Below are positions 1-31,899 of a DNA stretch of 64,000 nucleotides, one piece after another (within the stretch, counting starts at the first letter, position 1; each line of letters begins with the position of its first letter). Both the position numbers and the translations under genes were made by a program. This DNA comes from Schmidtea polychroa (lineage: Eukaryota): contig CM097885.1 in assembly GCA_044892525.1 (NCBI GenBank), positions 115,134,001 through 115,198,000 on the forward strand, given 5' to 3'. The notes beneath the pieces were generated by a model. That model saw only the letters and a program-made list of their open reading frames with translations. It had not been told where the DNA came from and made no database searches.

Positions 1-1646
1 CAGACGATATCTTATGAATTTACTATGCTGCAGACAAACAGTTGGATTTAATCGCAAACGGTGATTGTCAAGATTCTTTCTTAGCTACTCTGATCGTCAG
101 GCTGATTTTCCTGAAAGATTTTCCTCAATCTATGTGAAGTTTGTTTGGATCTATCTAAACACTCATATCCATCTAAATCCGGATTAACCTCTGTTGGGAG
201 TTCAAGCTTCCTATACGAATATCAGAAATCCCGATATAACTGAACGAAATGATAGAATTATCCTCCTAACGATCGCGCTGAGTGAAGGAAAATTTTTACT
301 CCGCAACTGGATTTTTCCATCTACCGAGTCTCATCACCCCTCATGACACACCCAAGAAGGCATTCATTGCTGCCGCCATTCTTGCACCGTCATGAGGGAC
401 CAATCAACTCCTTTACATTCAAAAAAAAAAATTAAACATTCGTATAAAAGTCATAATAATGACAGAATAAATGATGAGCAAAATAAACAAATCGAAATAC
501 CCGGCGACCATATCATCTGGGCTCCAAGTATGATGCTTTTCCCTTTTCGATCATATATTCAATTTCAGCATTTGCAAACATCTCATTGATTATTATCACC
601 TTCTCCAGTCCTAATATCTTCGCAACATCTCCTAGATGCATGCCACAAAAACTCCTCGTGGCTACTTCCTCCATTTGGCATCATACTTGAAATCACCAGA
701 GGGTATAGTCGTCGGCACCATGAAGAAAGGCAGTTTCTATTTTCAAATAAATTTATTAAATGAAATTATTCTTATTATTTACAAAAATTTACTAAAGTCA
801 ATCATAAATATCTATTAAATTCAATCATATAAGACTAATCCATAAATAACTTAACATACTTCGAGGTTTGAAAAACTGGAGTTAATCGGTTAACGCGAAG
901 GTTTTCTTGAGTAAGTTTACTGAGCTTCTTCCTAAAATCGATTTGGTTGTTTTTGAAATTAGTCCTTCGTAGTAGTTCGTAAGTCAAGTTCTGCAATCGT
1001 GAAAATTAAAGTGGTTCCTGAATGTCGTCCTGTAGAGTTTGGTTAAAAGTGGTTGTTCAAATTTAAGAATTTTACCTGTAGAGTTTGGTTAAAAGTGGTA
1101 CTCTACTAATTTTTCGCGTTTCTTATATACTATTTTTTCGTCCAATCAGGACTCAGTTAGGTTGTAATTTTTATATTTATTATTATTTAATGTTTTTATT
1201 ATAATATATTAGCCTTTAATAACTTAACTTATTTCTTATTATTATTTTATTTATTTTTCTTATTCTTATTATTTTTCTCCTATTTTTCCTGCTGATTTAT
1301 GGTTACTTTATTGCCATATGATTTTTTGTTTTAATTAGGCTTAGAGATATTTTTATTTTTATTTATTGCTTTAATTTCTCGTTTATTTTCTCTCACTTTT
1401 TCGTTTATTCTATTTCTACTTTACCCGCTGGGTGCTTTAAATCCTTTCTCTTTTGTCTTCGTTCCAATTCTTAGGGGTTTTATTTATTTATTACTTATTC
1501 TTATTTCTTTTTATGGGTATTTTATTGTTTCCTTATTTACTATTGAGGTTTGATGGTAATTTATCTTTTATTATATTTTGTTTATTTTTCGAGGTTCGCT
1601 TCCCGATTCAACCCAGTTTTTCTCTACTTCAAAATTTAGCCCAACA
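1..1646 (-). repeat. 3' LTR (partial)
   Basis: Matches 33846-35452 apart from a 39-bp indel near 345-383, a 1-nt A-run difference and at least one substitution. Identity stops at ...tttagcccaaca (1646). Confidence 0.95.
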
Positions 1647-1877
1647 AATCACTCCGGGGCCCGTTAAAATTGCGTCCCGCAATTCACATAACATCATACA
1701 TTCAAATCATACTTCCTTTGGTATCAAATCTAATCTCATAATCAACATTCACACAAACATAAAAATAAATCGACTAACTAATACTTTAATTGACAGATAA
1801 AAGACAAATAAAAGCAAGCAGTGGCCACATATGGTGACCGGATTTATATACACAAATTTATGGATAGTCACAGGATC

Positions 1878-6690: not shown

Positions 6691-8085
6691 CTATATACAG
6701 TCATAATCCTTTCTATATTTGTGAGTTTGGAGGGGCTGAGCATTCCAGGCCTCCACCCACTGTTCTTGCTTGATTTTACTTGGTCGTTTGACTCGATGCT
6801 GAAAATTTCTGATTCTGGCCATCTCCAGTTCTCCGCGATGTCGTCTGTCTTTGATTATTTTTATCGTTCCCCCCGTTATGATTAAAAAGGCCCCAGCTAT
6901 TATTATTCCGCTGATCCACATCATCTGTTTTACGCTGATAATTTCCGATTTTTCCTTGTTTGTTGATATCGTCTCTGTACTTTTCTGATTACCGCCTTTG
7001 CCATTTCCCTTTATCATTCCTCGTATTCTCGCTATCTCCTCGTTCATACCTTCCTTTGCCATTTTTTGTATTTTTTCCATCTCTTCCTCTGACACATAAT
7101 TATCTTGATATTTCTCACTGGTTTTCTTGCGCTTTTCTTCCTCATCTTTTTCATCATTGCTTTTTCTTTTCTTCCCTCTTTTCCCAGGGTATCGTCGACA
7201 TTCTCTCTCTGTATCGTTTCTCCAGATACATACCGTGTATTCTTTTGGAGGTTGTTGCTGTGTTACATATTGTAAACAGTCTTCACCCGGTCTTAATCTT
7301 GAAATACAGACTTTGTGTTCTTTCCTTGGCTGGAGTTGCGTTATCACTGCCTCACCTCCTTTTTCCAGGTGTACCTCTTTCCCTTTAACTTTCGTTATTC
7401 TCTTCCCGTCTCGATTTCGGTATGCTTCTTGTATTCTTACTTCCGTTATCGGTTCTGTATCTTCATTTATCAACACTAGTCTCTGATATGCTCTAGACAT
7501 ACATCTTCCTAGTATGCACCTTTCTTTTAGATCCCATTCCTCTTTTAGATCCCATTGCTGATCCTGTGACCGTTTTTTCTTCCCCTGGTTTAGTTCTTCC
7601 TCCTTGTTGTCTTTGTTTTCCGTTTCTTTGGCTTCTTTTATTGTTCTCATCCCCCCATGGGCTGTTACTAACTCCATCATTGTTAGCACAATTATCATTA
7701 ATATCATATTCGTCTCTATTTCCTTGTTGGTGAAAAGTAGGCATACCCTCTGTTTTTCATTGTTCGTCTTTTCTTCTTCCTTTGTTCGGTTTCCGTGGGT
7801 GTTCTCCTCCTTTTTTGCACTTGAGTCGTTATTCCTTTGATTATTCTCTTTTGATTTCTTTTTCTCTCTGTCATCGTTTCGCCCTTTTCCATTATTATCG
7901 TCGTTATCGTCGTCTTTATCTCCCCCGCTGTCGTTTAAAATGTCGTCCTCGACATTTATATCGTTCAATAATCTGCGATATGATGTTAACACTCTGTTCC
8001 TTGCTAATTTTGCTTCGAATTCAAACTCTTTCCTCCCCGTTGCCGCATGTCTCTTTCTATTCCATTCCTTGACTAATTCTCTCAA
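6691..8085 (-). CDS. C-terminal pol extension: internal signal sequence, FN3-like ectodomain, TM helix, cytoplasmic tail
   Basis: Separated from the upstream ankyrin ORF by one in-frame TGA (8110-8112). Hydrophobic MILMIIVLTMMELVTA and MMWISGIIIAGAFLIITGG segments; ITQLQPRKEHKVCI resembles the FN3 L.P..Y.VC motif. Confidence 0.6.
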   Translation of the reverse strand: MRELVKEWNRKRHAATGRKEFEFEAKLARNRVLTSYRRLLNDINVEDDILNDSGGDKDDDNDDNNGKGRNDDREKKKSKENNQRNNDSSAKKEENTHGNRTKEEEKTNNEKQRVCLLFTNKEIETNMILMIIVLTMMELVTAHGGMRTIKEAKETENKDNKEEELNQGKKKRSQDQQWDLKEEWDLKERCILGRCMSRAYQRLVLINEDTEPITEVRIQEAYRNRDGKRITKVKGKEVHLEKGGEAVITQLQPRKEHKVCISRLRPGEDCLQYVTQQQPPKEYTVCIWRNDTERECRRYPGKRGKKRKSNDEKDEEEKRKKTSEKYQDNYVSEEEMEKIQKMAKEGMNEEIARIRGMIKGNGKGGNQKSTETISTNKEKSEIISVKQMMWISGIIIAGAFLIITGGTIKIIKDRRHRGELEMARIRNFQHRVKRPSKIKQEQWVEAWNAQPLQTHKYRKDYDCI

Positions 8086-8109
8086 TTGAATACGACGATG
8101 TTTTCCAAT

Positions 8110-8670
8110 TCACTTTTGTTCATTTTGATTTTGCGTGAATTTGAGGTCTTCCCGGTTTAGTACGATCAGTATGATTTTAGGAGTTCCTCCTTTCGTCAGC
8201 GTATTTTTAACCATTGCATTTTCTCCGTTTTCGTAGAACTCATTGATATTAATTGCATATTTATTGCTTTGTGGTATTCTCCATGTTAACAGTAACTTCA
8301 TAGCTTCTAAGTTTTTCCGTATCGTATTCCATTGGAACTGTGACGTATTCTTACAGATATTTTCTACCTCGTATCTTGTCGCATTTTTACAGATGAATCT
8401 AATCATTTCCAAGTTTGGTTGTATTGTTGCCCAATCCATGGTGGAATTTCCCTCGTTTGAGGTTTCGTCAAGTCTTGAACCTGATTGATGTAATATATGT
8501 AATGTTTTCGGGTGTATATTTGTTATTGCCGCATACATCATTGCTGTTTCTCCTTGTTCGTTTTTAGCGTTAGATTCTTCTCCTAAATCTCTAAGAATTC
8601 GCATGATTGTTATTGCTCTATTTTCTTTTGCTGCTAGTATTGCTTGTTGTAATGGTGTTCTTGAGTCTTT
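8110..8670 (-). pseudogene. Second ankyrin-repeat block of the pol extension
   Basis: TPLQQAI; NAKNEQGETAMMYAA; NEGNSTMDWA. Frameshift from the integrase ORF near 8670. Confidence 0.8.
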
Positions 8671-11194
8671 TGTTGGTATGGTGAATGCTTGTCTTTATTT
8701 TTCCTATGTCTAGATTTGTGGTCTGATCCCTTGCGTAGGTGTGTACTGTTTTTATTATTTTCGCTAGTATCGCTTCGTCAGATAAATCTCGCATTTCTTC
8801 GAAGAACACCTCTTTGGCTTTACGTATTACTATCTCGTGATCGGAGTTTATTATCTTTGCTTTACTTGTGGTTGTTATATTGTTTGGTATTTGATCGTCT
8901 TGTTTCTCAGACTCCCTGGTTGTTACTTTCTTCATTTTTATCTTTTTCCTGTTTGAACTGTTAATGCGTTCCTCCGCCGTAAGCACTTGAATAATACTTA
9001 GGTAGTTTTCTCGAATGTTATTCATGGTTTCCATCATATATAAGACACTCACAGTTTCCCAATATTTTACTTGTACTTTTTCGGTGAATTGAGATATGGA
9101 TTTTTCGAAACTGATAATTCGCTTTCTGATCAGTTGTTCGTCTTTGTGGTTTGAGAGCTTTATACCTCGTTGCAATAGTTGATTTGGAATTTCGAATAGA
9201 TGGTGTCCTCTCATAGCTTCTCTCATCAAGGTGTTTTCTCCTTTGGTAAATGTTTCGTTTATATCTACCATATAATCGTTTTTGATCGGGTTTCTCCACG
9301 AAATTAGTATTCCAGTAATGGTTATCAATTTCTCTTTGATTGCGGTTAATAGCCCGTCATACATATTTCCTATCTCTCTATTATCCTCATATGATAATAG
9401 ATCTACTAAGATTATGAAAGCTTCAGTACTTTTTCCTTTGATTGCATGATGTAGTGCATTTTTCTGATCGTGATCTTGTGTGGTTATCTTTGACCCTGTT
9501 TCCAGCAATGCTGTAATGATATCTTTAGTTTTATCCCGATTTGCTGCTATCATTAGTGGAGTGTAACCTTGATTGTTTTCTTGATTTGTCGAAATGTTAC
9601 AGTCATGAAATGCTTCAATCGTTTCCAATATTTGTTCATTATTACCAACCTTTAAAAGTTTGTGTAATGGTGTATCTCCGTAGTGGTCTGTGATCGTGAA
9701 TAATATAGGCCATTGACTTTTAACCACTCTGAGCAATGGGTGCGTTCTTTCCCGATTTGCATAATTTTCTATCATTGTTAGTAGACCTCCTAGTATTTCA
9801 AAATCCAATCTATCTTTTGCCCATCCGGGTATTTTAACTTTTACCTCTTTTATGATTCTTTCTGCTTCTGACGGTTGTAATCCTAGTCGACTGCCTGTTG
9901 GTTCGGTTACCTGTCGTAACATGTTCATTCTGTACGTTTGTGATCTTGTTGTTAATGTACGTCCTTCTGGCTGGCTAGTAGCTGTTTTCGGTATTGGTTT
10001 GCAGCGTGCAACGTTTACATATATTGGCCTTGTGAATGGATTGTTTACTAATCGTACTCTTACGTTAGTTTCTCCGACGAATAAAATCTCATACGGTCCT
10101 TTGCCATTGCGTTGTAATTTCTTGGTGGTTCCGGGAATTAATTCTGGTGTTTCGATCATCACCCAATCGCCTGTTTGAAACGTATGTTGTTTAACGTTTT
10201 TCTTTCTATCATGCAGATCTTTGTAGCTCTCCTGATAAAATTTTATGTTTAATCCTGCAGTTTCCCAGATTTCCTGCATTCTTTCCTTGAACTTCGTTAC
10301 ATAATCGTCTATTTCCATATATTGTGATATTGGTAGCTGATACTCTAAATCCATTGGCATATTACATTCTCTGCCGTACATCAACTTGAACGGACTCATC
10401 TTTGTGGATGCATGGATTGACATCCGGTAAGCCATTAGACATAATTTTATGTATTCATCCCAATCCCGTTGGTGACGGTCAACATAATTTGACAACATTT
10501 GAATGAGCGTTCCATTGAATCTTTCTGTCATACCATTTGTTTGTGGATGATACGGTGATGTTCTTAATTTTGCAATCTTGAAGTAGTTGGTTACTTCGCT
10601 CATTATTTCACTCATGAAATTTGTCCCTTGATCGGTCAGTATTTGTTTTGGCGTTCCATATCGACAACATATCTCTTCTACTAGTATTTTGGCTATTGTT
10701 TTTGCTTTCTGGTCTGCCATAGCGAACGCTTCAGGGAATTTAGTTAGATAATCCGTAATTACCAATATATAAATATTTCCTCTATCTGATTCTGGCAGTG
10801 GACCGACTACGTCCATTGATATCATTATCATTGGTTCAGCTGGTACTGGCATTGGCGTTAATGGTGCTTTCCATTTTGTTCCCGTATTTTTCCTAGTTGC
10901 GCAAGTTATACAATTTTTCACCCATTCCATTACATCCTCAGGTAACGTAGGCCAGAAGTATTTTTGTTTCATTCGTGCTAGCGTCTTTTTTGATGACATA
11001 TGTCCTCCGAGTCTTCCGTCATGATATTGCGTTAGCAAATCCTTGCGTCTATTCTCTGGGATACACATTAGTCTTTTTTCACCATCCATTATCAATAACC
11101 AATCCTTTTCTATTATATATCGGTGTCGATGTTTATCCATATGCTCTTTCAACTTTTGATCTTTCTCATATACCTCTGCTTTCCCGGTTTTCAC
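8618..11194 (-). CDS. Integrase (HHCC, DDE, GPY) fused to ankyrin repeats
   Basis: YHDGRLGGH..CITC; SMDVVGP; TDQGTNF; PYHPQTNGMTERFN; GPYEI; then GDTPLHKL, GYTPLMIAA, KNALHHAI. Confidence 0.95.
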   Translation of the reverse strand: MKTGKAEVYEKDQKLKEHMDKHRHRYIIEKDWLLIMDGEKRLMCIPENRRKDLLTQYHDGRLGGHMSSKKTLARMKQKYFWPTLPEDVMEWVKNCITCATRKNTGTKWKAPLTPMPVPAEPMIMISMDVVGPLPESDRGNIYILVITDYLTKFPEAFAMADQKAKTIAKILVEEICCRYGTPKQILTDQGTNFMSEIMSEVTNYFKIAKLRTSPYHPQTNGMTERFNGTLIQMLSNYVDRHQRDWDEYIKLCLMAYRMSIHASTKMSPFKLMYGRECNMPMDLEYQLPISQYMEIDDYVTKFKERMQEIWETAGLNIKFYQESYKDLHDRKKNVKQHTFQTGDWVMIETPELIPGTTKKLQRNGKGPYEILFVGETNVRVRLVNNPFTRPIYVNVARCKPIPKTATSQPEGRTLTTRSQTYRMNMLRQVTEPTGSRLGLQPSEAERIIKEVKVKIPGWAKDRLDFEILGGLLTMIENYANRERTHPLLRVVKSQWPILFTITDHYGDTPLHKLLKVGNNEQILETIEAFHDCNISTNQENNQGYTPLMIAANRDKTKDIITALLETGSKITTQDHDQKNALHHAIKGKSTEAFIILVDLLSYEDNREIGNMYDGLLTAIKEKLITITGILISWRNPIKNDYMVDINETFTKGENTLMREAMRGHHLFEIPNQLLQRGIKLSNHKDEQLIRKRIISFEKSISQFTEKVQVKYWETVSVLYMMETMNNIRENYLSIIQVLTAEERINSSNRKKIKMKKVTTRESEKQDDQIPNNITTTSKAKIINSDHEIVIRKAKEVFFEEMRDLSDEAILAKIIKTVHTYARDQTTNLDIGKIKTSIHHTNKRLKNTITTSNTSSKRK

Positions 11195-11206
11195 GTATTC
11201 GATAAT

Positions 11207-13601
11207 TTACTTCAACTCTACATCATCTTGTTGGTCTTTCCGTAATTGGCAAAAGTCTAAATCTTCCGCTACCATCAGACATATTCGTTGCATTTCGTGA
11301 TCCACTAAGTCTGGAAAAATAAATCTTGACATACAATCTGCATTTGCGTTTGCTCTTCCTGCTTTGAATTTTATGAATGGTGAATATTCCTGTAATTGCA
11401 TAGCCCATCGCATCAATCTACTGGAGGCTTCTTTGTGTTGTCCGAGCCATACTAATGGTTGATGATCTGTTGTTATACATATTTCATGTCCCCATAATAG
11501 ATATCGAAAATGCTTAATTGCCTGTATTATTGCTAATGCTTCCCTTTCTGTTACCGAGTAGTTTTTCTCATGTTTCTTGAACGTTCTGCTGTAGTAGCCG
11601 ATTACTCTCTCCTTACCTTCATCGTCTAGTTGTCCCAGTATTGCTCCGGCTGCATAACCACTTGCATCTGTCGCTAATAAAAACGGTTTCTTGAAATCTG
11701 GATGTACTAGTATTGGGGCTTCGATTAATTTATCTCGTAATGTTTCGAACGCCTTTTGTTGTTCTGCTCCTCAGATAAAGGAAATATCTTTTTTCACTAA
11801 TTCTTGGATAGGTTTCGCAATGCCTGCATAGTTTTTAATGAATTTACGATAATATCCGCCTAGTCCAAGAAATTCTTGAACTTGAGTGACGGTTTTCGGT
11901 GCTGGACAGGTTTTTATTTTTTTCTATATTTCTGGGATCTGGTTCTTTGCCTTTTGCTGACACTATGTGTCCTAGGAACGTAACCTTCTCTTTTGCCCAA
12001 TCACACTTTGATGGTTTGAGTTTCAATTTCCATTGCCTTAATCGGATGAACACATTTCTAATATCCTCCAAATGTTGTTCAAATGTTGCTGAATATATTA
12101 ATAGATCATCAATATATACCATACACTGCTTGATCCCGTGCGTGACAAAGTTCATGCATCTTTGAAATGATGCTGGGGCATTAGTTAATCCAAATGGCAT
12201 TTTCCTGAATTTGTATAGATCTCGTCCCAATGTGAATGCTGTTTTCTCCTTGTCCTCCTCTTTGACTTTGATCTGCCAATATCCGCTTTTCAGATCTAAA
12301 GATGTAAAATATGCGGCTCCCTGTAACATAAGCAACATCTCATTGATGTCTGGTAGCGGGTATGTGTCTCTTTTCGTTACCGCGTTGAGTTTTCGATAAT
12401 CGATACAGAATCTCTGCGTACCGTCTTTTTTCTTCACCATGACTACTGGAAATTTCCATGGTGAACAACTCGGTTCAATTACTTTTGCGTCTAACATCTT
12501 TTGCACTTCTGCTTCAGCTATTTCTTTTTGTTTTTCTGCTAGTTTGTATAAACGTAATGCGATTGGAGTTTCGTCTATCAACGGTATTGCGTGTAATGTA
12601 ACATCGCATGCTCCCAAATCCAAATCCGAAATGGCGAATATATCTTTATATTCTATCAATAATTGTTGAAGTTTTCCTTTTTCATTCTCTGTTAGCAAGG
12701 TACTATCGATTATCCATAATTCGTCAGTCTTCATGGTGTCGTTGATGATCTTTGGTAATTCAATGTCCATCATCGGTGTTAATCTACCCAATCTTTCATT
12801 CTCATATATGATCTTATCTTCTTCCTCGAAATTCGTGATGTTAATTGGTATTTCTCCTTCTTCATTTATTGTTATTATTTCTCTTGCCAATGGTAATTCT
12901 CGTCTTTTTTCGAATGATTTGCTTGGTTCGAATATGGCTTCTCCTTCCATTCCGGTATCTACTTTTATTTGACATATCATTTGTGATTTTGTTGGTACAA
13001 TTATTTTTTCCGGACATCTAATTATGGCTTTCATCTTGCATATTCTACCCAATTTGTCTTTTAGGCACATTGTTGTTAGATCGATTACCACTTCTTTGAA
13101 TAATTCCGGCATTAAGTCTGTTCCGATTATACAGGGTTCACTCAGTTTTGGTATTACCGCCAGATAGGTTTCGATTTCATTATCTTGATATCGCAACTTG
13201 GTCCGCCATCTTCCCACTACGTCTACTGTCTCTTTGCTGCATGCAATAATATGGATGGTTGTCTGTTCGATGTCTTTCCAATATTTACTGGGTATTTGAT
13301 TTATTGCTATTGCCGATACATTTGCTCCGGTATCTATCATTGCGCTCGTCTCTTTTCCATTAATTCGGATCATGACTGTTACGGCTGAGCCTCCTAGCGA
13401 ACTCATTACTGCTATCGTTCTTACGTCATCAGCTTGGTCTACGCTTTTGGTTCTTCGGGTTGGCATATAATTCATTCCTGGTTGACTTGGTAACTGTGGA
13501 TACATATTTGTGTCATGGTTAAAGCTGCTTGTGGTCCCACGATATCCGGTGGTATATAACTTCCATTGGCTATCCAAGTATTCGTCTTTTCTTTCTCCCA
13601 A
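11207..13601 (-). pseudogene. Protease - reverse transcriptase - RNase H
   Basis: IDTGANVS protease; RFCIDYRKLN, PFGLTNAP, VYIDD; TDASG, EREALAI, TDHQPL, NADCMSR. Frameshift ~11920, TGA 11771-11773, TAA 11207-11209. Confidence 0.96.
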
Positions 13602-15853
13602 TATGGTGCTGTTTCTATTTGCTTTTCGTGCGGGTTTCTACTTGGATATGGGTATTTATCATTTCCGTTATCATCGTCATCGCTATCGCTGCTGTTTGAG
13701 CGATTTCTAAATCTTTCCAGGAATTTTGGTTTGTTCTTCTTTAGTTGTGCTCTCGTGGCTTCGTCATACATTGTTTTCCGGAATCGTCTGCCAACTTCCT
13801 CGTCCGTTCCTTTTATTTTGGTTAATATTTTAATCAATCGTTTTATCCGATGAATGTCTTTTGAGTGGCCGTGTAACAGCATTGTTTTGGCTAAGAATGG
13901 TAGAAATCCCACTATCAATTTCCAATTCACTTTCTTCTCCCTCTTGTATATATCAAAACAAGCTAACATTTGAGTTAGGATTACTCTGACTATTTGAATT
14001 ATGAGTATGATTCCTAATATTCCGGCCATCATTTGTCCAAATACTAAAAATCTTCCCCACATTGCTTTCATCATTTTTGACGTGGCTTGTTGGAAATGAT
14101 CGGGTGACAATAATAGCTCATAATTTGGACCCGTTTGATAATTCGTTCCCCCGGTTATAGTTACCATATTTGACAATATTGACTCTCGTCTGACTGGAAA
14201 AAGTATGTTTAGCCGTGCTGTTTCTAGATCTTCTGGGGAATACATACCTCCGTTTGATACGTCAATGGGTTTGAAGACTTGTTCCGTGGCGAGTTCTATT
14301 AATCCAAACTTCTTGGGCTCCTCTGTTATGGATTTTACCGGTAACATTATCCATTTCCCATCGGGTCTTTCATACAATGGTCCGTACGCATTAGAACAGT
14401 TAAAGAGATTCGGGTAGAAACCCACTGGGTTCATAATTCTGGTGACTGGTTGGACGAATCGGTTTTGTCCTTTATAACGAATTTCTAATTCATTTGCACA
14501 TTTCCCTGATGGTATTGTGGGTTTTTCTGGCATTCGTGCATACGTCTTGGTACACTGATAGGTGTACATTACTTCTCCTACCATTCTTCCAAAATGTCCA
14601 TCTGGTAATGGAAGTGATGGCATCGTATTATCTGGATGCGTTATCGCGATAGCTAGTTTTGTTTTCAGTATCTCTTTATTCAATGAACAATCGTTTTGTA
14701 TCAGATCGTAATATACTTTTTGTAGTGTCGTTTGTCCACGATGAAATAAAAAATCCATTTTGTTGTTGGCGTATAGGTACAGTTTGACGTCTTCTGTGGC
14801 TATCTTTCCCACTGCTCTATCTATTATCTGCCTTGACATGTAGATGCCTGCGTAGTTAGTCTTGGATACTATACTATCGCATTTGGTGGTTTCCTTCTCC
14901 TTGATAAATCTCATGCCCAGGTCTGGATCGTCTGTGATTAGTGCCGTTGGTGTTTTCTGTGTTGAGAGTCTTTTTTCTCTGGGCGATGGTGGCACTGGTT
15001 TTCCGTTTCGCATGTGTACTTTCCCATTTCCATCTTCGTCGTCTTCGTTCTCATAAAATTCTCCCTTTACTTCATTGAACAAGGCACTTTTTAACAGTTG
15101 GAGTCGGCATTTTTGAGTGTTAGCTTCATATATTATGGTCGATACCCCCGTCTTGCATACGTTTTCCGTGGCTTTACATGTTGGGTTGGTTTTCATTTGA
15201 TAATTATTGGCGTCGAATTGTGCCTCGTATTCTTTTAATTCAACGGTGTAAGACTCGATCACTACTACCCCTGATATCACCTCTCCTCTGATCGTATATG
15301 CACCTCCGTTACATGATCCATCGCCTGCGTTTACACGTCCGGCTACATAAATACTTTCTGTTTTAATCATTCCGCTTTGTCCATGTTTTGTTACTCCGTT
15401 ATGCATTTTCATTGCTCCGGTTCTGAAGAGCTCCTTGCAGTCCTCTCTTTGTATGGATACTATTTCTTTATCTAATCCGGGTAGTATGAGATTTGAATAG
15501 GAATATTGTCCACAGTAATATGCGAGTACCCTTTTTGATACCACGCATTCCCTTGCTTGGGTCCTGATAAAATCCGATTCTTGATATACGTGGTATGTGA
15601 CCTTTCTATTTACTATGTCTAACTTGTTCGGCGATGCTTGTCTACATTCTTCTATATCTCTCAGTGAGTATTTGTCTCTCATTATCGAATTATCACAATC
15701 GTAAATTGTAAATCCACCTGCTCCGCTTGTACATAGCATCCATATCATCATGGTCATCATTAGTGAGTTAATTGACGCTTTTCTGCTGGCTGGGTCTTTT
15801 AATGGCAATTCCCATTCTAGTTCGTTTAGTAATTTCTTCAACCTGATTTGCAT
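13472..15853 (-). CDS. Envelope glycoprotein resembling chuvirus/Monjiviricetes class III fusion proteins
   Basis: Signal-like LMMTMMIWMLCTSGAGG, then TIYDC..YSLRDIEEC, ECVVSKRVLAYYCG, REDCKELFRTG, many conserved Cys, and TM anchor WGRFLVFGQMMAGILGIILII. Confidence 0.8.
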   Translation of the reverse strand: MQIRLKKLLNELEWELPLKDPASRKASINSLMMTMMIWMLCTSGAGGFTIYDCDNSIMRDKYSLRDIEECRQASPNKLDIVNRKVTYHVYQESDFIRTQARECVVSKRVLAYYCGQYSYSNLILPGLDKEIVSIQREDCKELFRTGAMKMHNGVTKHGQSGMIKTESIYVAGRVNAGDGSCNGGAYTIRGEVISGVVVIESYTVELKEYEAQFDANNYQMKTNPTCKATENVCKTGVSTIIYEANTQKCRLQLLKSALFNEVKGEFYENEDDEDGNGKVHMRNGKPVPPSPREKRLSTQKTPTALITDDPDLGMRFIKEKETTKCDSIVSKTNYAGIYMSRQIIDRAVGKIATEDVKLYLYANNKMDFLFHRGQTTLQKVYYDLIQNDCSLNKEILKTKLAIAITHPDNTMPSLPLPDGHFGRMVGEVMYTYQCTKTYARMPEKPTIPSGKCANELEIRYKGQNRFVQPVTRIMNPVGFYPNLFNCSNAYGPLYERPDGKWIMLPVKSITEEPKKFGLIELATEQVFKPIDVSNGGMYSPEDLETARLNILFPVRRESILSNMVTITGGTNYQTGPNYELLLSPDHFQQATSKMMKAMWGRFLVFGQMMAGILGIILIIQIVRVILTQMLACFDIYKREKKVNWKLIVGFLPFLAKTMLLHGHSKDIHRIKRLIKILTKIKGTDEEVGRRFRKTMYDEATRAQLKKNKPKFLERFRNRSNSSDSDDDDNGNDKYPYPSRNPHEKQIETAPYWEKEKTNTWIANGSYIPPDIVGPQAALTMTQICIHSYQVNQE

Positions 15854-15918
15854 TGATCTTTCTTGTTCGTTCTTTCGTGGGGCTTGTATCAGCCTTTTCC
15901 ATCCACCGGCGTGGATAA

Positions 15919-18900
15919 TAGGGTGGGTCGAATGTTAATAAATTTTGAGTTCAAGAAAGGAAACATGGTTAAAAAGTTGTATTTTGGTATAGAAAAATCG
16001 AATCAAACCATTTTACTTAGATTTATGAACATTTACTGCTCCCAACTTTTCTCCGAAAATGCAGTTCAACATAAGTGTGAAAACAATGTAATTTGGCTAG
16101 TGTCGGAATGTGTTTTGCGCCTTTGTCCATATTTAGATGTAGCTTTCTTAAGAGCTTATAAGTATATTATTTACTCTCTTGGGCTGAGATAGTATATTCT
16201 GTGTCCTCATCCCGCATTGAAATATATCCTGACAACGTCAGTGATTAGGAAGGGCCAAATTTGAATTATCCTTTTCAAAGACAAAAATCAACTTTCGAAA
16301 TTATTTTTTATTAAAAACATCCAGCCAAAAGTTTAGAAATGTATTAGCGAGGGCATAAAAAGAAGTCACATGAAATCAGCTTTGCTTTGCACCTTGGGCA
16401 ATTCCTTCCTTGATTTTTTACACAGTAGTACCATACCATGTCTGGACTTGTGACCAAACACTTTGCAACTGGCAGAAGAAACATCTTTGATGGCTCTTTC
16501 AACGGCTTGAGAATGACAGGGAAATTGTTCTAATGTAATTTTCTTATTCATCTTCAATTCATGATCCAATATATGAGATAAAAGAGGGGGAGGCGTCAAA
16601 TTACATTTTGTCCAGTCAATCATGTCAACATATGATGTAGCAGACGACTGAAGAAAGACAGTATTCTTGTCCATAGTGCGAATCACTTCGGAAGGGAGAA
16701 AATTTTTTCTTGCAGTTATGATTTTTTCTGTTGCAAACTTTCTGATTTCTTCATCATCATCACCAACAGCAGCTAGGAGTATATTTTCTGGATGTGAGAA
16801 GTAATTGTTGTTCTGAATGACAGGAAAGATGATTTCTTGGTCTGATGGATCCAAATCCTGCAGAAGTTGGAGCATATAAAAAATATTTCTTGCACCATCT
16901 TGGCATGACGAGTGAGTCTTTATATAAAACCATGACGGTCCATAGAAATTGACAATAAATTTCACTATTCGCATGAGAGGTTCAGATGGAGCAGTTTCGG
17001 ACATATATAGTCGCAGAATTATATTAGCTTTCGTTAGCCAGCGACTGTGATTCAAATTTCCTGGTTGTGCCATTTGTAGAAAAGGGACATCCTTGTTGTT
17101 GTGGTACCCTTTCTGGACTGCCAAGCATACTCTGAGGAAATACAATTGATCAGTGTTCAATTCTTTCTTGACATTTTCACTAATATCTACGACCTTTCCA
17201 GGAAGGGACATAAAGGCTACTACGGGCTTGTCTTTTGGATCAAAATCAAGAACGCTTCCTATTTCACCACATGACGTTTTTGGACCTTTTGTTTCTCCAC
17301 CATCGACGACTGAAAAATACTTCCTGAATGGCAATTCATTTGCATGCAACAAGCATATCAGCCATTGTAGAGGTCGCCCTAGGCTTTTTTCGAGTCTTCT
17401 GATTATTCCATTATTTTTTCCGGTGTTTGTATTGGTTGCATCGCACACAATTGCTTGAAGGGTCAGTGAGGACTGCGTGCTAACGATGATTGACATGATT
17501 TCTTTGCCAATATCCACAGCTTTACTACTTTGAGGTACAACATGATCGATATATGTATCCCCTGGAAAGGCGACAATCACATAATGCTCCTCTTTTAGGA
17601 TCCTTCTATGAAGTAAGGTGGAATCTTGTTTCCCGTCGAAACCGAGGTAAATCAAGTTTTTCGCTTCTGCTGAATGCTGTTCAATTTCTCTCTCCCTCCA
17701 GTACTTTCTCTGACGCCGTAATTTTGCGGGATCGATGATTGTTTGAGAGGATAACAGTTCCATATCTTTCAGAAAAGCGTTTACTAGCAAACACGTGTCT
17801 CTGTTGCTCACACTACATCTGTCAACAGCTTTACTTAATTCAGGATAATGTCTTCTATTTTGAAATTCATCACATTCTTCTACGCTTGACTCTGAGCTTT
17901 CTGTTGAATTGTCTAACTTATCTTTACTTTCATCACTAGCGGCTTTACTCTCCGTGTCACTTCTTGAGGTCGGATGTAGATCGTTAACTTCAGTGTCCAT
18001 TATTTCATTTTTCATTTGTTTTCCTTTTCCTGTAGGGCTGCTTTTCGTTTGTTTTCTCTTCAATTTTGAGGTTTCCTGTCTGTCCGTATTTCCGATTTTC
18101 ATGTTTCTGGTAGTTTGTTGGTCAATCCAGAACTCCCACTCTAAGGTAGGAATTTTCAAGGCCAACCGGCATGTACACTGACTTCTTCCACGAGCACCAT
18201 CATTAAAACATTTGCAGCAACATATGTCAAACAATTTGGAAAACGAGCTTAACTTATCTTGAAATTTGGCAGATGACCTCTTGCATTCTGGATACTTCTC
18301 TAATTCACGCACTTTTGATATTAGTCGCTTGACACGAACCACAATACTACTGAACTCAACAGTTGGGATACTTGCCTTCATATAAATTTCCTTCACCTTA
18401 TTTGCGAGAAGAGTTGCTTGTTCGTTAAAGCCAGTATGAAATTGCGTACATTTCTCATTGTAACAGTAATCACGAAACACATCTTCACAAGTAGGTAATT
18501 GGTTTCTGGGTAGTTCACAAGTTTGACCAAACAGACAATGACGTGATTTATTTCTTGTTTTGCGAAATTGCTTATTTCTCTGTCCCTTCATAACTGCTCT
18601 TCTGTACTCAGCTCTGGCAAAATAAAAGTGAATCATCAAGTTAACTTTTTTAATTAGGTCCAGCAAACACTTGACATCCAATCGAAACAAATTAAATTAT
18701 CTGAGTTTAGACTGACTAGTAGTATCCATGTGGATTATATGTTGACTGTAGTATGTGTGTTAGTATTGTTCAGAAGAAATTGTCTTTGTGAGTGCTTGTG
18801 TGAAGGTGCTTCCGTGAATTAACCTCTCTATACATGCACGCGTTAGCTTGGACTTGTGAATAGAGCATATCAAAAATGGTCTTTCTGCAAGCGTGTGACT

Positions 18901-19089
18901 GCTTGCAGGATGAGTTTACAATGGCACGTGTGCGAGCATTTTTACTGGGATAGTACTAATACATACAAACAAAAGTTGGGACCTGTAAACCCTTTTAAAC
19001 AGCAGTCTTTTGCAGGGATATTTCATTTTCTAGCATAAGCACAACTTTTTAGGCATGTTTGGAGAAAAAAAAAATTTCGACCCACCCTA
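15919..19089 (-). mobile_element. hAT-superfamily DNA transposon (probably hATm-like) nested in the LTR element
   Basis: 14-bp TIR TAGGGTGGGTCGAA; 8-bp TSD GTGGATAA at 15911-15918 and 19090-19097. Confidence 0.88.
16366..18690 (-). CDS. DDE transposase, apparently intact
   Basis: FDGKQD, VCDATNTNTG, WLICLLHANELP (CxxH), HSRWLT, YFSHPEN, PCHSQAVER. Confidence 0.9.
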   Translation of the reverse strand: MFRLDVKCLLDLIKKVNLMIHFYFARAEYRRAVMKGQRNKQFRKTRNKSRHCLFGQTCELPRNQLPTCEDVFRDYCYNEKCTQFHTGFNEQATLLANKVKEIYMKASIPTVEFSSIVVRVKRLISKVRELEKYPECKRSSAKFQDKLSSFSKLFDICCCKCFNDGARGRSQCTCRLALKIPTLEWEFWIDQQTTRNMKIGNTDRQETSKLKRKQTKSSPTGKGKQMKNEIMDTEVNDLHPTSRSDTESKAASDESKDKLDNSTESSESSVEECDEFQNRRHYPELSKAVDRCSVSNRDTCLLVNAFLKDMELLSSQTIIDPAKLRRQRKYWREREIEQHSAEAKNLIYLGFDGKQDSTLLHRRILKEEHYVIVAFPGDTYIDHVVPQSSKAVDIGKEIMSIIVSTQSSLTLQAIVCDATNTNTGKNNGIIRRLEKSLGRPLQWLICLLHANELPFRKYFSVVDGGETKGPKTSCGEIGSVLDFDPKDKPVVAFMSLPGKVVDISENVKKELNTDQLYFLRVCLAVQKGYHNNKDVPFLQMAQPGNLNHSRWLTKANIILRLYMSETAPSEPLMRIVKFIVNFYGPSWFYIKTHSSCQDGARNIFYMLQLLQDLDPSDQEIIFPVIQNNNYFSHPENILLAAVGDDDEEIRKFATEKIITARKNFLPSEVIRTMDKNTVFLQSSATSYVDMIDWTKCNLTPPPLLSHILDHELKMNKKITLEQFPCHSQAVERAIKDVSSASCKVFGHKSRHGMVLLCKKSRKELPKVQSKADFM

Positions 19090-21216
19090 GTGGATAATGT
19101 GTGGTTCAATTGTATTTTCGATGATTGTAACTGTCATTTCTACATGATTTGCGAATTGTTTGTTTGGTATCTTCCTTGCAGCTAATCCCATCAAATTGTA
19201 CATTAAATACGTTAGCACTACTAGATGATGTTCATCGTTGTTTGCGTTTAAAGTCAATTGCTCGATCATTCTACTTGTCTCTTCCCAATCTGTTTTAGCG
19301 GTCTTTGTTTTCTCTTTGATTAATTTCGGAATTATTCCGGATATTGCATTCCACAGTTGTCTGGCTTCTACACTCGCTACTTTCCGTTGCCATAGTCGTC
19401 TCAACTGTGGATTGGTTATTATTAGCATATCCTTTACTAACTCCCGTATCCATTTTTCACCTCTTTCGATTGTTGGCTGGGTTTCTTTTAGATCCCACAC
19501 TATTTTGTCCAGTTTTTCTAATCTGGCTTGCCCTTGTTCTTGTTTTAATTGTTCTCTGGTTTTGAATTCGGGGTTTTCGCCTTGCTTCTTGGGTCTTCCT
19601 TTTACCCGTTTCTCCATCATTGTTCCGGCTTCTCTCGTCATTTCGTAACTCGGGTTTCTCTCATTATCCGTTCTCGGCAATGAGCTATCATTGTTTCTCA
19701 GCCATTCATTCCATTCATCTATAATTTTGTCATTTTTCCCCTCCGTTGGCAGCTTGGTTGGTTCTTGTAATCTCTTTATTTGTTCATCCGTTTCAGTTTC
19801 TGTTGTATTATCCATAATTTCCTCAATACTCAGTTTATTTGGTAGTTGATAACTAGTGGATGGTTGGTTTGTTGTCCATGTTTCTGCTCCTGTCGGCCAT
19901 CTCACTAGAATTGGCGATCTTTCTCCAGCTTCTTCGTCACTATCTTCCAATATGATCTCCTCGATCTCTTCAGTTTCATTTGATTTGCTTGGCACGTTGT
20001 CAGGGCTTGGTGTACTCAAGCTACCTTTCGTGGGTTTGCTGGATTTGGTTTTCCTTTTGATTGGTTTTCCCAATGTTTCTGCCATTGTCAATACATTGAT
20101 TTCCCCCAGTCTCATGGGTGTTATTCCGACGTCTGCATTATCATCTAATGATTTTCCTTGCAGTTGTAGATGGAAAGGAGTTTCATATGCTAATTTCTTT
20201 TTTAATTCTCGGATTTTTGTGGTTGGATGCACCTCTACTTCCTCGACATTTTTATCTGGGTATTTAATTCGAATTCGATATCTTTCTTGGGTGTCTTATG
20301 ACCATTCATGGGTTCGCCATTTCCCGATGATTTGCTCCAATTGTTCCGGGTACCATTCGTTGTACTGTCGGTATTCTTCTATAGTCTTTACTATTTCTCT
20401 CAGATAGTGGATGTTGTCTGATACTTTTAGAATGAAGTTAGCCAATGCTATTACTTGTCGTTTTTGATTTTTCACTCCCATTATTAAGATATCACCTAAT
20501 TGTTTATATCTTTCTCTCTCTTCTCGATCTCTTGCTTCTATCGCTTCTTCACTGTCCATATCGGCATATTCACGTTCCTTCTTTCTCATTGCATGAATGT
20601 GTCTGGTTTCCGTTTCGCTTTCGGACGTGACATCTGTTTCACTTTCGTCATCTGATTCCGGTTCTATTTTGTCTTCTTCGTATTTCGGAGGTTCATCTTC
20701 CTCTTCTTCTGACTCACTTTCTATCTCACCGATGTCGGTTTCTACGAAAATTCCTTTCCTAATTTCCCATTCTTTATTTTCTGCATTCCACATCCAAGGG
20801 GTTCGTCTGCAAGATCTAGTACTCAGTTTCTTTATTTTCCCTTGTAGTTCTTTTTCGTTTAGCCACTGTTGATGCATTTCAATTATCTCTACTGATTTTT
20901 GGTATAGCGTTTTCATCCTATCTCGTATCTCTTTCTGGTAGGTCACATCTCTTGTGCGAAATTCATCCATGGGTAATATCCTGATTATTTGATGATTATC
21001 CCACATGCCCATTTCGCTTAACGAGGTGTCGTCCTCAGCTCGTAATATTATTTTGTCGTACATCATGACTACATCATCTATCATACCGTCGCTACTTTCA
21101 CTTCGTACCTTTTCCGTTATCTCTTGGTTTATCTTTGCTACCAAGTCATCCACCGTACTCTGGTTGCTCATTTTTATTCGTCGCTTCTCCTCGTTCGGCA
21201 ACCATATGGTTATTTC
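19090..21216 (-). pseudogene. Gag extension, part 2: ubiquitin-like domains 2 and 3, acidic repeat, Bcl-2-like region
   Basis: The 20296-21201 and 19087-20232 ORFs share a frame across one TAA and rejoin the flanking ORFs when the insertions are removed. Confidence 0.7.
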
Positions 21217-21624
21217 TAAAAAAAAAAAAAAAAAATCAAATTTTATTTTAATAAACCATCAGGCCCATCGGGCATAAGGGGAGATATTCTCGACCCTTTG
21301 AAATCTAAAGCTTTTTTTTCTGTTAACTGGCGAACGCTGAGCAGGTGCTCAAGCGTTAAACGAGAGGTCTGATTGGTTGATGTTGAAGCTTCTTGAGACA
21401 AGCTCCACTTTCATATAATAAAGATATTTTGGGTATAAATAAGGTTATGCATGGATATACAGTATTATATATAGGATATAGTTGGTGAGTTTTTGGTAGT
21501 TCAGAAGAATAGTGGGTAGACGAGGTGGGAGGTACAGGTACTACAGTGTGAGGTAAAGGGTTAGAGGTTGGAAGACATATGGTAGGGGTTTAATAGTATG
21601 TTAGGTGTGAAGGTTTTGGGTGAA

Positions 21625-21830
21625 GAGGTTGATGGAAGTTAGAGGTTGGAATGTAGAGGTTGGAATGTAGAGGTTGGAATGTAGAGGTTGGAAGGTAGAG
21701 GTTGGAAGGTAGAGGTTGGAAGGTAGAGGTTGGAAGGTAGAGGTTTGAAGGTAGAGGTTGGACGGTAGAGTTTGGACGGTAGAGGTTGGAGGGCATAGTA
21801 TTGAAAGGTAGAGGTTTGAGAGTAGGTTGT
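21625..21830. repeat. 14-bp minisatellite (tagaggttggaagg)n in the LINE 3' UTR
   Basis: About 12 tandem copies visible. Confidence 0.9.
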
Positions 21831-21999
21831 AGGGTGAAGGTTTCTTAAGGCTATTTAAAGATACGGTATAGGCGGGTAGAAGTGGGAGAGTAGAGGTTGA
21901 AGGATAGGTGAAAGGTTGTTTTAATTATTGTTTTTTTTTTAAATATTAAATATAAATAAGCAAATATAGGAATGAGGCAACACAAGAAAAGAGACGCTT

Positions 22000-22660
22000 G
22001 ACTGTTCAGGGTTGGTTGGGTTGACGCTTGACTGGTCAGAATTGCCGGATTGGTCATTCACAGTTAAAAACACATATAACAAAAGAGACTGGCTGGGTTG
22101 AATGGGTTGACGCTTGTCTGGTCGGGATTGCCGGATTGCTCATTCACAGTTAAAAAACATATATAACAAAAGAGACTGGCTGGGTGTAATGTGTTGACGC
22201 TTGACTGGCCAGGATTGCCGGGTTGATCATTCACAGTTAAAAAACATATATAACAGAAGAGACTGGTTGGGTTGGTTGGGTTGACGCTTGACTGGTCAGA
22301 ATTGCCGGATTGGTCATTCACAGTTAAAAACACATATAACAAAAGAGACTGGCTGGGTTGAATGGGTTGACGCTTGTCTGGTCGGGATTGCCGGATTGCT
22401 CATTCACAGTTAAAAAACATATATAACAAAAGAGACTGGCTGGGTTGAATGTGTTGACGCTTGTCTGGTCGGGATTGCCGGATTGCTCATTCACAGTTAA
22501 AAAACATATATAACAAAAGAGACTGGCTGGGTTGAATGTGTTGACGCTTGATGGCTGGGTTGGTTGGGTTGGCGCTTGACTGGCCAGGATTGCTGACTGT
22601 GTTGGTTGGGTTGAGGCTTGACTGGTCAGGATTGCCGGATTGATCAGTCACAGTTAAAAG
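22000..22660. repeat. 86-87-bp tandem repeat in the LINE 3' UTR
   Basis: ttgacgcttg recurs at about 22021, 22107, 22194, 22281, 22367, 22454, 22541. Confidence 0.9.
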
Positions 22661-22808
22661 CACATTGATGGGCAGGTGTCCAGTATGTCCTTGTATCATT
22701 GGGTATTCAACACGGTGGGTCCTTTCTATTAAATAAGTCGGTTGCCCGAGGAGGTGCATGGTATAGAATAATGGATATATTGTTTTTATTATTGTAATCG
22801 TTATTATT

Positions 22809-23025
22809 NNNNNNNNNNNNNNNNNNNNNNNNNNNNNNNNNNNNNNNNNNNNNNNNNNNNNNNNNNNNNNNNNNNNNNNNNNNNNNNNNNNNNNNNNNNN
22901 NNNNNNNNNNNNNNNNNNNNNNNNNNNNNNNNNNNNNNNNNNNNNNNNNNNNNNNNNNNNNNNNNNNNNNNNNNNNNNNNNNNNNNNNNNNNNNNNNNNN
23001 NNNNNNNNNNNNNNNNNNNNNNNNN
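22809..23025. other. Assembly gap (217 N)
   Basis: Run of N. Confidence 1.
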
Positions 23026-23228
23026 TTGATACTATGAATACCAATATCAAAAATCTTGTTGCTAATATTAAGAGCTTTGCATTCATACGCAACACTCAGT
23101 ATAGAAAATTTTTAAATCTCATCATTGCATAGGGATAATTAAAATTTTGTATAATAGGAATAGTTTTGATATAAATATGGTAATGCTTTGACAGTTAGAT
23201 AATATATAGAGAAATATGGGGGTGTGTG

Positions 23229-30930: not shown

Positions 30931-31424
30931 ATCTAAATAAATGTGTTGTCATTACTCGGTCTCACTTACAAAAATAAAAATAATATAATTGTGTTGTAAT
31001 CAATATTCGTTTGGCTTTTATTCGCTATTGTTTCTAGTTTATGTGTTTTATTCAATCTTTAACACTTCCCCCTTTTTAATTTAATAAATTAAAATTAAAC
31101 AAAATTAGCCAATTCCCGTTTTCTTTTCTCATCATACTCAATCATTAGACTCATTTTTATTCATGCATACTCCATTTCAGACACATATTGTTCGTATTGT
31201 CATTTATTACACTATAATATCACACTGATTCGGTTCGGTCCCGATTTCGTTATTATCATAATTAATTAAATTATTAAATTAACACCTCATAATACAATAA
31301 TAGGCAGTTAAACAAATCAAATTGAGTGAATCCCGGCTGAGCCCCCAAAAATCATGTTGGCATATGAGGGAGAAGAAACCCATACATACATAACCGTCAA
31401 CATACCAGACCTCATCGTTTAGCT

Positions 31425-31608: not shown

Positions 31609-31899
31609 TATTCGTACATCAATCACGGTCCGATCCTGGTCCAAGGGAACGACCTTCATCCTGATTTCATTCATCTCACAGCATTATTTCGTTTATTCTG
31701 ATTTCAAAAATCAAACATACGGAAACTTCACAAGACAAAATCGAACAGAAAATATATTGACACCGACAACACAAAAGTAATTACAGCGTTACCAATGATA
31801 GGTTTAACAACATTTAATCAATTTGAACATGCAGCGTTATCGACGTTTGCAAGTTGAATCACAACTCGAAGAGAAATCGAGATCGAACGTAGGTTGTTT

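Follow-up and report, generated by a model that had tools for sequence, protein, structure and literature searches.

Organization of the locus

The window, which is the whole stretch of 64,000 nucleotides of Schmidtea polychroa DNA analyzed here (contig CM097885.1), holds a decayed copy of a Burro-type giant Ty3/gypsy retroelement. Its features are given below from the 5′ LTR to the 3′ LTR; "natural ORF" refers to the uninterrupted reading frame of other copies in the same genome.

31355..35453 (-): 5′ LTR, ~4.1 kb, beginning with TG at 35453, 98.9% identity to the 3′ LTR
30451..30948 (-): accessory ORF upstream of gag, its C-terminus bearing a RING finger (Pfam zf-C3HC4_3, E 1.2e-8)
28060..28692 (-): gag capsid-like N-part (Retrotrans_gag, E 5.3e-9), aa 47-251 of the natural ORF
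27071..28171 (-): gag C-part, in which lie three CCHC knuckles (zf-CCHC, E 2.7e-11), stop-terminated in this copy
25955..27070 (-): Gag extension piece 1, aa 586-953 of the natural ORF
~21220..25954 (-): non-LTR retrotransposon insertion with RT, zinc-binding C-terminal ORF and tandem repeats (RVT_1, E 4.9e-32; zf-RVT)
20296..21219 (-): Gag extension piece 2, aa 955-1263 of the natural ORF, stop-terminated in this copy
19090..20295 (-): Gag extension piece 3, holding a ubiquitin-like domain (ubiquitin, E 0.0064) and most of the Bcl-2-like domain
15919..19089 (no strand assigned): DNA-transposon insertion (hAT-like), 14-bp TIRs, 8-bp TSD
16366..18696 (-): 776-aa ORF within the hAT-like insertion, no Pfam match
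15773..15910 (-): end of the BH2-like motif (GGW), then a linker
15713..15772 (-): predicted internal signal peptide, with basic patch, hydrophobic core and small -3/-1 residues
14057..15712 (-): Env ectodomain, 552 aa, predicted class III (gB-like) fusogen fold (PF24664, model, Foldseek/VIA)
13955..14032 (-): predicted transmembrane anchor, the most hydrophobic stretch in the ORF (Kyte-Doolittle, KD, 2.53)
13874..13930 (-): another hydrophobic helix, weaker than the anchor and preceded by a basic cluster (KD 1.3-1.4), kept across homologues
11844..13637 (-): protease and reverse transcriptase (RVP, E 2.9e-10; RVT_1, E 1.5e-36)
11207..11770 (-): RNase H (RT_RNaseH, E 9.9e-41)
8618..11206 (-): integrase, then ankyrin repeats (Integrase_H2C2, rve, Ank_2)
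8110..8694 (-): second ankyrin block (Ank_2, E 7e-9), aa 4075-4267 of the natural ORF
6691..8109 (-): polyprotein C-terminal module with a second signal-like stretch, a ~250-aa domain and a C-terminal transmembrane segment
4937..6154 (-): downstream accessory TRAF-like ORF with RING and MATH (MATH_2, E 2.1e-11; zf-C3HC4)
1..1647 (-): 3′ LTR, the portion within the window; it extends ~2.5 kb past the window start

The two LTRs of this copy form a 4.1-kb pair with 98.9% identity over 4,138 columns. LTRs at both ends, gag upstream of PR-RT-RH-IN and the Pfam matches RT_RNaseH, Integrase_H2C2 and Retrotrans_gag fit Ty3/gypsy. In the natural copies the upstream RING ORF was also found, and the TRAF-like ORF is a separate ORF of 478 aa. 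The C-terminal module matched no Pfam family, its Atlas search gave only fibronectin-III leads scoring below 0.9, and the modules of families 1 and 2 failed to align with each other. No BIR domain was matched in the 20 ORFs scanned.

The connection between gag and env is broken in the window copy by the stop at 20296, the non-LTR insertion, the stop at 27071 and a frame change at ~28.1 kb, while another frame change at ~13.5 kb puts the protease and RT out of the env frame. The non-LTR insertion is missing from other copies, appearing as a gap when aligned to six of them; a search for a TSD of at least 7 bp around it found none.

Continuity of the Gag-Env-Pol reading frame

The insertion at 15919-19089 lies within the BH2-like motif and is bracketed by copies of an 8-bp direct repeat at 15911-15918 and 19090-19097. 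Its terminal inverted repeats are perfect over 14 bp, and it was the best among all TSD-bounded candidates tested, with 16 of 20 terminal bases complementary against 10 in the runner-up. The label hAT (here "hAT-like") rests on the 8-bp TSD and the TIRs; the transposase-like ORF of 776 aa had no Pfam match at E<=0.01. Upstream, the frame of 19090-20295 ends in IEPHIIH, and downstream the frame of 13472-15934 has a codon start at 15910 (AGGW...). By arithmetic the codon phase is the same on either side, so the reading frame is unaffected by the insertion. The earlier note had claimed that removing the insertion joins these two ends in frame with a glycoprotein of 793 aa, a length counted from the Met of ...SMQIRL to the stop at 13472. 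The junction is borne out by the repeats, the phase and the natural copies: in 15/15 insertion-free copies examined, the BH2-like motif and the env N-terminus share one open frame, and no stop was found between them. The frame is open from the gag extension into env in intact copies, and the placing of env in the gag frame stands as well.

The search for env in the same genome gave 2,434 first-look candidates, from which 111 were scored. Fifty-nine of these matches sit in an open frame of 4,732 codons (one of the 59 was flagged with an internal stop), and 62/111 lie in an open frame of at least 4,700 aa. Five chosen long-frame copies carried gag, with CCHC x3, the BH2-like GGW, env, PR, RT, RNase H and integrase in a single ORF. 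Their LTR pairs were 99.9-100% identical across the 2.8-3.0 kb compared; LTR starts in natural copies are ~26 kb apart. The same domain order in one frame is retained by two sister families whose env is only 35-37% identical. Among 19 public homologues scanned, the protease was found downstream on the same chain in 9 and gag markers upstream in 3.

The earlier note also took pol to start after env. This had to be corrected, since pol is in frame too, in one Gag-Env-Pol ORF, and its apparent start is the frame change of the window copy at ~13.5 kb. As the env anchor and the protease share a frame in 9/9 other same-family copies examined, the separate pol of the window is an artefact of that change, which is confined to the window copy among 10 same-family copies; a pol encoded as a separate ORF was rejected on this basis.

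Fold and conservation of the Env ectodomain

The ectodomain matched PF24664, the chuvirus/Monjiviricetes glycoprotein family, with E 8e-73, and has the same start motif. Its predicted model (pLDDT 90.7) shows a long central helix at 311-358, an elongated beta domain I and a gB-type five-domain fold complete across residues 1-532. Foldseek gave E 6e-14 to HSV-1 gB, all 32 rows listed being gB. The VIA comparison with herpes gB gave Z 9.9 over 428 residues (rmsd 9.1); in this alignment, residue 1 of the model falls where the ordered part of the gB ectodomain begins. In the viral structure library the best matches were glycoproteins of chu-like viruses (TM up to 0.74). A profile of 124 rows retrieved 39 matches from the PDB sequences, all of them herpes gB (best E 5e-5), and no useful match was obtained there with single-sequence and 9-row queries. 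Word-index protein searches with near, longer and alignment queries also returned no match, which reflects a limit of sensitivity because the full HMMER search gave 848 relatives. Judged by the predicted fold, the ectodomain is a chuvirus-like class III (gB-type) fusogen, as the check proposed beforehand had anticipated; an F-type or class I env was rejected, every structural match being class III.

The ectodomain has 14 cysteines, all kept and including the conserved ones of the family, and one N-glycosylation sequon. A conserved furin site was considered and rejected, the furin-like REKR not being retained in the sister families. The ectodomain is under purifying selection, with dN/dS of ~0.06: 0.057 (bootstrap 0.038-0.082), and 0.062 between two uninterrupted natural copies. 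The values of other modules were 0.044 for ankyrin and 0.075 for both the C-terminal module and the extension; given such similar values in cargo domains, selection alone is no proof of fusion.

A predicted signal peptide inside the polyprotein

We looked for signal peptides with a hand-made rule, distinct from SignalP, that asks for a hydrophobic core and small residues at -3/-1. The pattern was present ahead of the ectodomain in 16/16 own-genome sequences from three families and in 15/18 internal public homologues, against a background of 106/9,000 random positions (1.2%). Stand-alone homologues with an N-terminal position, presumed true signals, scored 49/81; matches without the anchor motif, 44 of 150, were left out of the public-homologue count. 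The internal signal is positioned where the stand-alone homologues end their N-terminal signal peptide, and the -3/-1 residues are small in the three families though the sequence varies (A/T..G, T..S, T..C). Some family-2 rows were given Met as first codon by the aligner, which is a one-residue artefact. In the window family the core is moderately hydrophobic, with an 11-residue KD of 2.05, and lies below the 19-residue threshold of 1.5. It is well supported by this conservation that the predicted internal signal peptide ends just before FTIYDC, and this peptide probably serves to release the envelope. That signal peptide had been proposed before as the means of releasing Env from a Gag polyprotein with a separate pol; the signal was upheld by its conservation, and the Gag-Env polyprotein without pol was not.

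In the three own-genome families the signal pattern comes after a weak Bcl-2-like domain. The Pfam E values for Bcl-2 were 0.064 in the window family and 0.0037/0.02 and 2e-5 in the two sister families, all below the curated cut-off, and the ubiquitin-like match is likewise weak. The BH2-like W-I-x-x-x-GGW is present in the sister families. The model of the Bcl-2-like region had pLDDT 46, its Foldseek matches had E 0.02 or worse with all listed rows in the Bcl-2 family, and the Atlas search with this region found no match. The signal stretch may double as the tail anchor of the Bcl-2-like domain. A general requirement of the internal signal for a Bcl-2 domain was rejected: GGW lay within 120 aa upstream in only 4/15 of the long/internal homologues listed.

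As for the topology, the predicted signal pattern and the main predicted transmembrane segment may be those of a type I protein with a single TM. A second hydrophobic helix, weaker than the anchor, follows it in most homologues and may either associate with the membrane or cross it. Were it to cross, Pol would end up on the lumenal side and the topology proposed below would fail.

Relation to known elements

Arkhipova and Yushenova (2019, PMC6431247) described the Burro env in frame between gag and pol. Their planarian gypsy-like Burro1/GYPSM1 and Burro2-4 resemble the element studied here in being ~30 kb long with kilobase LTRs, and in a single ORF of 4,700-5,100 aa with gag bearing three CCHC, ubiquitin-like, BCL2-like, env (in frame between BCL2 and PR), PR, RT, RH, IN and ankyrin, together with RING and MATH/TRAF cargo. 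Here MATH/TRAF has an ORF of its own, downstream of the polyprotein, whereas it lies within ORF1 in Burro1 and in an upstream ORF in a Dugesia element. Our assignment to Burro used the published descriptions of Burro1-4 and considered size, long LTRs, copy number, ORF order and cargo. That paper compared the Burro env with gypsy Env/F-type proteins and with the glycoproteins of mononegaviruses, while the fold match here is class III gB, and it does not discuss a signal peptide in the Burro env.

According to the accessible text of Chary and Hayashi (2026, PMC13524379), the envs of planarian GAG-ENV-POL elements are gB-type, and gB-type errantiviruses of this order occur in Platyhelminthes, Nematoda and Bryozoa, including Smed_errantivirus_1-6. 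Like the present element, they have a Ty3/gypsy pol, a chuvirus-like gB-type env between gag and pol, and many intact copies. By eye, from the env rows available from that source, Smed_errantivirus_2 and _1 closely resemble sister families 2 and 3, respectively, and Smed_errantivirus_5 is nearest to the window family. GAG, ENV and POL are treated there as ORFs, and the accessible text contains neither "polyprotein" nor "in frame" nor processing. The same ectodomain family and start motif are shared by the chuvirus/Monjiviricetes glycoproteins (PF24664) and by BEL/Pao elements with a captured chuvirus glycoprotein; the chuvirus-type homologues differ in being mostly stand-alone proteins of 620-750 aa with an N-terminal signal peptide (81/106 scorable matches).

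The novelty that the earlier note implied for an in-frame env was thus anticipated for Burro (PMC6431247), and gB-type flatworm GAG-ENV-POL elements appear in the accessible text of PMC13524379. With the order known since 2019 and the gB-type planarian assignment since 2026, the residual value is mechanistic. Our literature search found no paper explaining how a membrane glycoprotein embedded within a Gag-Pol chain is set free, though part of this may already be published in the Burro work. What appears new here, as judged from the sequence, is the conserved internal signal pattern, the predicted Env N-terminus and the possible overlap of Bcl-2 anchor and signal.

Proposed mechanism and alternatives

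We consider it probable that the env of the window is that of a decayed Burro-type Ty3/gypsy element, intact copies of which carry Gag, Env and Pol in a single frame of 4,732 codons, and whose gB-like Env is released through an internal signal peptide by the host signal peptidase. The basis for this is the single ORF of natural copies, the domain order, the class III fold match, the purifying selection and the conserved signal pattern. Gag and its extension would be made in the cytosol, and the hydrophobic stretch after the Bcl-2-like domain would thread the ectodomain into the ER. Signal peptidase would cleave before FTIYDC, leaving the upstream part tethered through the hydrophobic stretch, and the C-terminal anchor would halt transfer and bring the chain back to the cytosolic side. 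The enzymes (protease, RT, RNase H and integrase) would then hang from the cytosolic tail of Env until released by the element's own protease, and Env would trimerise and serve as the fusion protein of enveloped particles budding at internal membranes. In flavivirus polyproteins, through the capsid anchor, and in alphavirus structural polyproteins an internal signal likewise comes after a cytosolic capsid and inserts the envelope protein, and in flaviviruses the enzymes lie downstream in the same chain; these are unrelated RNA viruses with class II fusogens. The likeness would be an analogy of processing logic only.

Env might be processed in this way and yet have lost cell-to-cell spread, being kept as a membrane assembly scaffold or, in the manner of the RING, TRAF, Bcl-2-like and ankyrin modules, as cargo that interacts with the host. 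The similar dN/dS of the cargo domains (0.044-0.075) agrees with such a role, as does the Burro1 IAP cargo, reported to aid host stem cells (cited in the accessible text of PMC13465017); the gB fold, complete over residues 1-532 and with its conserved cysteines retained, speaks against it, and we regard it as unlikely. The working Env might instead be translated from a subgenomic or spliced RNA, or ribosomes might initiate internally at the Met residues clustered in the signal, leaving the full-length polyprotein mainly for Gag and Pol; this seems to us quite unlikely. The env of Drosophila gypsy is expressed via a spliced RNA, the signal of the window family starts with several Met, and a 1:1:1 ratio of Gag, Env and Pol would seem wasteful. 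However, no stop separates BH2 and env in the 15 copies, the Met residues of the sister families lie inside the hydrophobic core of the signal, where a start would truncate it, and ribosomes producing Pol would traverse signal and anchor regardless. Contigs from three runs, aligned to one natural copy, gave no splice joint that could be interpreted and are uninformative for either reading; such expression can also coexist with release by signal peptidase.

Another reading takes the first hydrophobic stretch for a signal-anchor that is left uncut; Env would then stay fixed at its two ends, or the element's protease would release it on the cytosolic side. The tail anchors of Bcl-2 proteins are normally uncleaved, which favours this. 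So does the description of gB-type ectodomains flanked either by a signal peptide and a TM or by two TMs (Chary and Hayashi, accessible text of PMC13524379). Against it, the small -3/-1 residues are kept despite sequence divergence, precisely where the signal of stand-alone homologues ends, and we find an uncleaved anchor very unlikely.

Release by signal peptidase would admit a wider reading, which we put forward tentatively and with some doubt. Burro elements could be actively replicating enveloped endogenous viruses whose particle derives from one ER-threaded polyprotein. The tail anchor of a captured Bcl-2-like protein would serve also as the signal peptide of Env, the matrix-less Gag would after cleavage be tethered to the membrane via the anti-apoptotic domain and Pol to the Env tail, and a second internal signal would free a further single-pass C-terminal membrane protein. 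With such flavivirus-style processing they could move between host cells.

The question of release can be tested directly through the conserved internal signal pattern, the exact N-terminus predicted for Env and the possible overlap of Bcl-2 anchor and signal. Its answer bears on whether elements that are very abundant and were recently active in a regenerating animal are true enveloped viruses.

Layout and decay of the window copy

The glycoprotein (env) is carried by a giant Burro-type LTR element of the Ty3/gypsy class, whose LTRs are 98.9% identical over 4,138 columns. The element is delimited and interrupted by the following features.

31355-35453, minus strand: 5' LTR of the giant element carrying env
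From 1647, extending beyond the window, minus strand: 3' LTR of the same element
15919-19089: insertion bounded by 14-bp terminal inverted repeats and a duplicated 8-bp target site
About 21220-25954: non-LTR insertion, a further break in this copy

Between the LTRs the order is a RING ORF, gag (Retrotrans_gag with three CCHC knuckles), a long extension, the glycoprotein, protease, RT, RNase H, integrase, ankyrin repeats, a C-terminal membrane module, and a separate RING-MATH ORF. The earlier note had stated that removing the insertion at 15919-19089 rejoins the env frame, and this was confirmed by equal codon phases on both flanks together with the duplication and the inverted repeats. The glycoprotein length of 793 aa is counted from a Met within the linker. 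The insertion is a hAT-like DNA transposon placed within the BH2-like GGW motif, and its open 776-aa ORF gave no match in a Pfam search. The window copy is decayed: it has stops at 27071 and 20296, frame changes near 28.1 kb and 13.5 kb, and additional breaks in pol. The non-LTR retrotransposon fragment (21220-25954) holds 14-bp and 87-bp tandem arrays and a masked N stretch (22809-23025); its RT and the Gag extension share a frame and form a chimeric 888-aa ORF (24404-27070).

An ORF of about 256 aa was seen within the LTR (31900-32670). Related ORFs in the opposite orientation are found nearby, at 36298-37061 (+) and 45210-45860 (+), probably in the LTRs of neighbouring related elements. The long nested inverted repeats at 53936-56119 / 56493-60832 (578 bp at 100%, other arms 75-93%), together with a transposase-like fragment (57765-58307), make up a foldback-type DNA element.

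Gag, Env, and Pol in a single frame

Querying the S. polychroa genome with the ectodomain returned 2,434 candidates. Of the 111 that were scored, 59 sat in an open frame of 4,732 aa and 62 in one of at least 4,700 aa. Six natural copies were fetched, five of them picked for their long frames. In these five, one ORF contains gag, GGW (residue 1668), the env start (1733), the TM (2293), protease (2525), RT (2932), and integrase (3296). Over the 2.8-3.0 kb fetched, the two LTRs of each copy agree at 99.9-100%, which marks these copies as recent insertions. The earlier note had left frame continuity to be checked in intact copies: one open frame spanned both the BH2-like motif and the start of env in 15/15 natural copies examined. 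Gag knuckles and env had a common frame in 10/15, and env anchor and protease in 13/15 overall and in 9/9 other copies of the same family. The location of env in the gag frame, between gag and protease, is thus borne out in the long-frame copies, whereas the proposal that pol starts after env is not, as pol continues in that frame. Since the long-frame copies hold everything in one ORF and protease lies in the frame of the env anchor in most copies examined, the product is Gag-Env-Pol, and not Gag-Env plus a separate pol.

A Pfam-profile search of this genome recovered two further families, which keep the single-frame layout and whose env shares 35-37% identity with that of the window family. 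At least two Burro-like families exist beyond that of the window (e.g., loci L019-L030 and L036-L047), one further family having a 3,334-aa ORF. Among 19 public homologues scanned, protease was downstream on the same chain in 9, gag markers upstream in 3, and both in 2.

In gag, Bcl-like, RT, and IN regions the window copy is 88-91% identical to a copy of the 4,733-aa subfamily (81-84% to the 4,732-aa subfamily), while its env (14057-15712) is nearer the 4,732-aa subfamily (86.5% versus 83.3%). This mosaic pattern suggests exchange of the env module between subfamilies. In the window family and one sister family (families 1 and 2), the first Met lies about 250 aa ahead of the first CCHC knuckle, without Gly-2; because it falls directly at the capsid-like domain, there would be no room for a matrix domain. 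An (I/V)-x-M-M-like motif recurs at domain borders of the natural ORF (L004-L006), marking candidate protease sites.

Fold and conservation of the glycoprotein

The glycoprotein matches PF24664 (Pfam, E 8e-73) and, at E<=0.001, 848 proteins of the library. All 39 PDB sequence matches of a 124-row profile were herpesvirus gB. The AlphaFold2 model of the ectodomain (pLDDT 90.7, pTM 0.75) matched post-fusion gB in Foldseek (E 6e-14, TM about 0.43) and in VIA (Z 9.9, 428 residues, rmsd 9.1), and models of chu-like virus glycoproteins with E 4e-37 and TM up to 0.74. The class III fold on which the earlier note had made its reading depend was therefore recovered, and by its modelled fold the protein is a class III-type fusogen. 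Comparing the window copy with a natural copy gave an ectodomain dN/dS of 0.057 (RT 0.012, capsid 0.105), and comparing two uninterrupted copies gave 0.062; the values are rough because several domains are almost saturated at synonymous sites.

Predicted internal signal and membrane segments

Stand-alone homologues have an N-terminal signal peptide ending at an xxAYDC motif. Of 150 matches, 44 without a usable motif were left out. The others were scored by a simple rule for the stretch immediately before the motif, which asked for an 11-residue hydropathy of at least 1.8 and for small residues at both -3 and -1. The rule was passed by 49/81 N-terminal, 15/18 internal, and 2/7 intermediate public homologues, by 16/16 own-genome sequences, and by 106/9,000 random positions. 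The pattern passes the rule and persists across the three families although the sequence of the stretch varies, which supports an internal, cleavable signal ahead of the ectodomain. Of the signal peptide placed before FTIYDC by the earlier note, the pattern stands, and from it we infer cleavage. In the public homologue P0095, a DUF5641 domain is joined to the glycoprotein by the same signal-like stretch, suggesting a BEL-type pol that carries env in frame at its end. P0008, labelled a bacterial MAG protein, is a eukaryotic-type env-pol polyprotein and probably mis-binned.

In the three families the signal stretch lies about 25-50 aa after the BH2-like motif. The Bcl-2 assignment of the region upstream agrees with the literature but is weak: the Pfam matches (E 2e-5 to 0.064) did not reach the cut-off, and the model (pLDDT 46) had only the Bcl-2 family among the matches listed, at E>=0.02. 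Bcl-2 proteins carry a tail anchor at the chain end, about where the signal stretch sits, so that one hydrophobic stretch could be Bcl-2 tail anchor and env signal at once. Dependence of the signal on the GGW was ruled out, since a comparable upstream GGW is present in only 4/15 long or internal homologues listed.

After the ectodomain there is one strong TM and then a less hydrophobic helix that is conserved among homologues, with a basic cluster between them in the window family; the proposed topology would require that the weaker helix not span the membrane. The polyprotein end in families 1 and 2 (6691-8109 (-); L019:4280-5392 (-)) has another signal-like stretch, followed by a domain of 250-330 aa and a C-terminal TM; this part may be set free as a second membrane protein. 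An Atlas search with this module gave only weak fibronectin-III leads (0.86).

Relation to described elements

The env-in-frame arrangement and the fold class are already known. Arkhipova and Yushenova 2019 (PMC6431247) described Burro elements in which env sits in frame between gag and pol. Chary and Hayashi 2026 (PMC13524379) describe GAG-ENV-POL elements with gB-type env from nematodes, bryozoans, and flatworms, six of them from a planarian; comparing their env rows by eye, two closely match the sister families, whereas the window family comes nearest to a third. Expression of Burro1 and an IAP cargo are on record in PMC8532177 and PMC13465017. Our literature search, which covered the Burro literature in part, found no paper on the env processing mechanism. 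The observation of the earlier note is real, and the arrangement is more complete than it had seen, with Gag-Env-Pol in one chain. What remains as testable is the internal signal, the predicted cut before FTIYDC, and the overlap with a Bcl-2 anchor.
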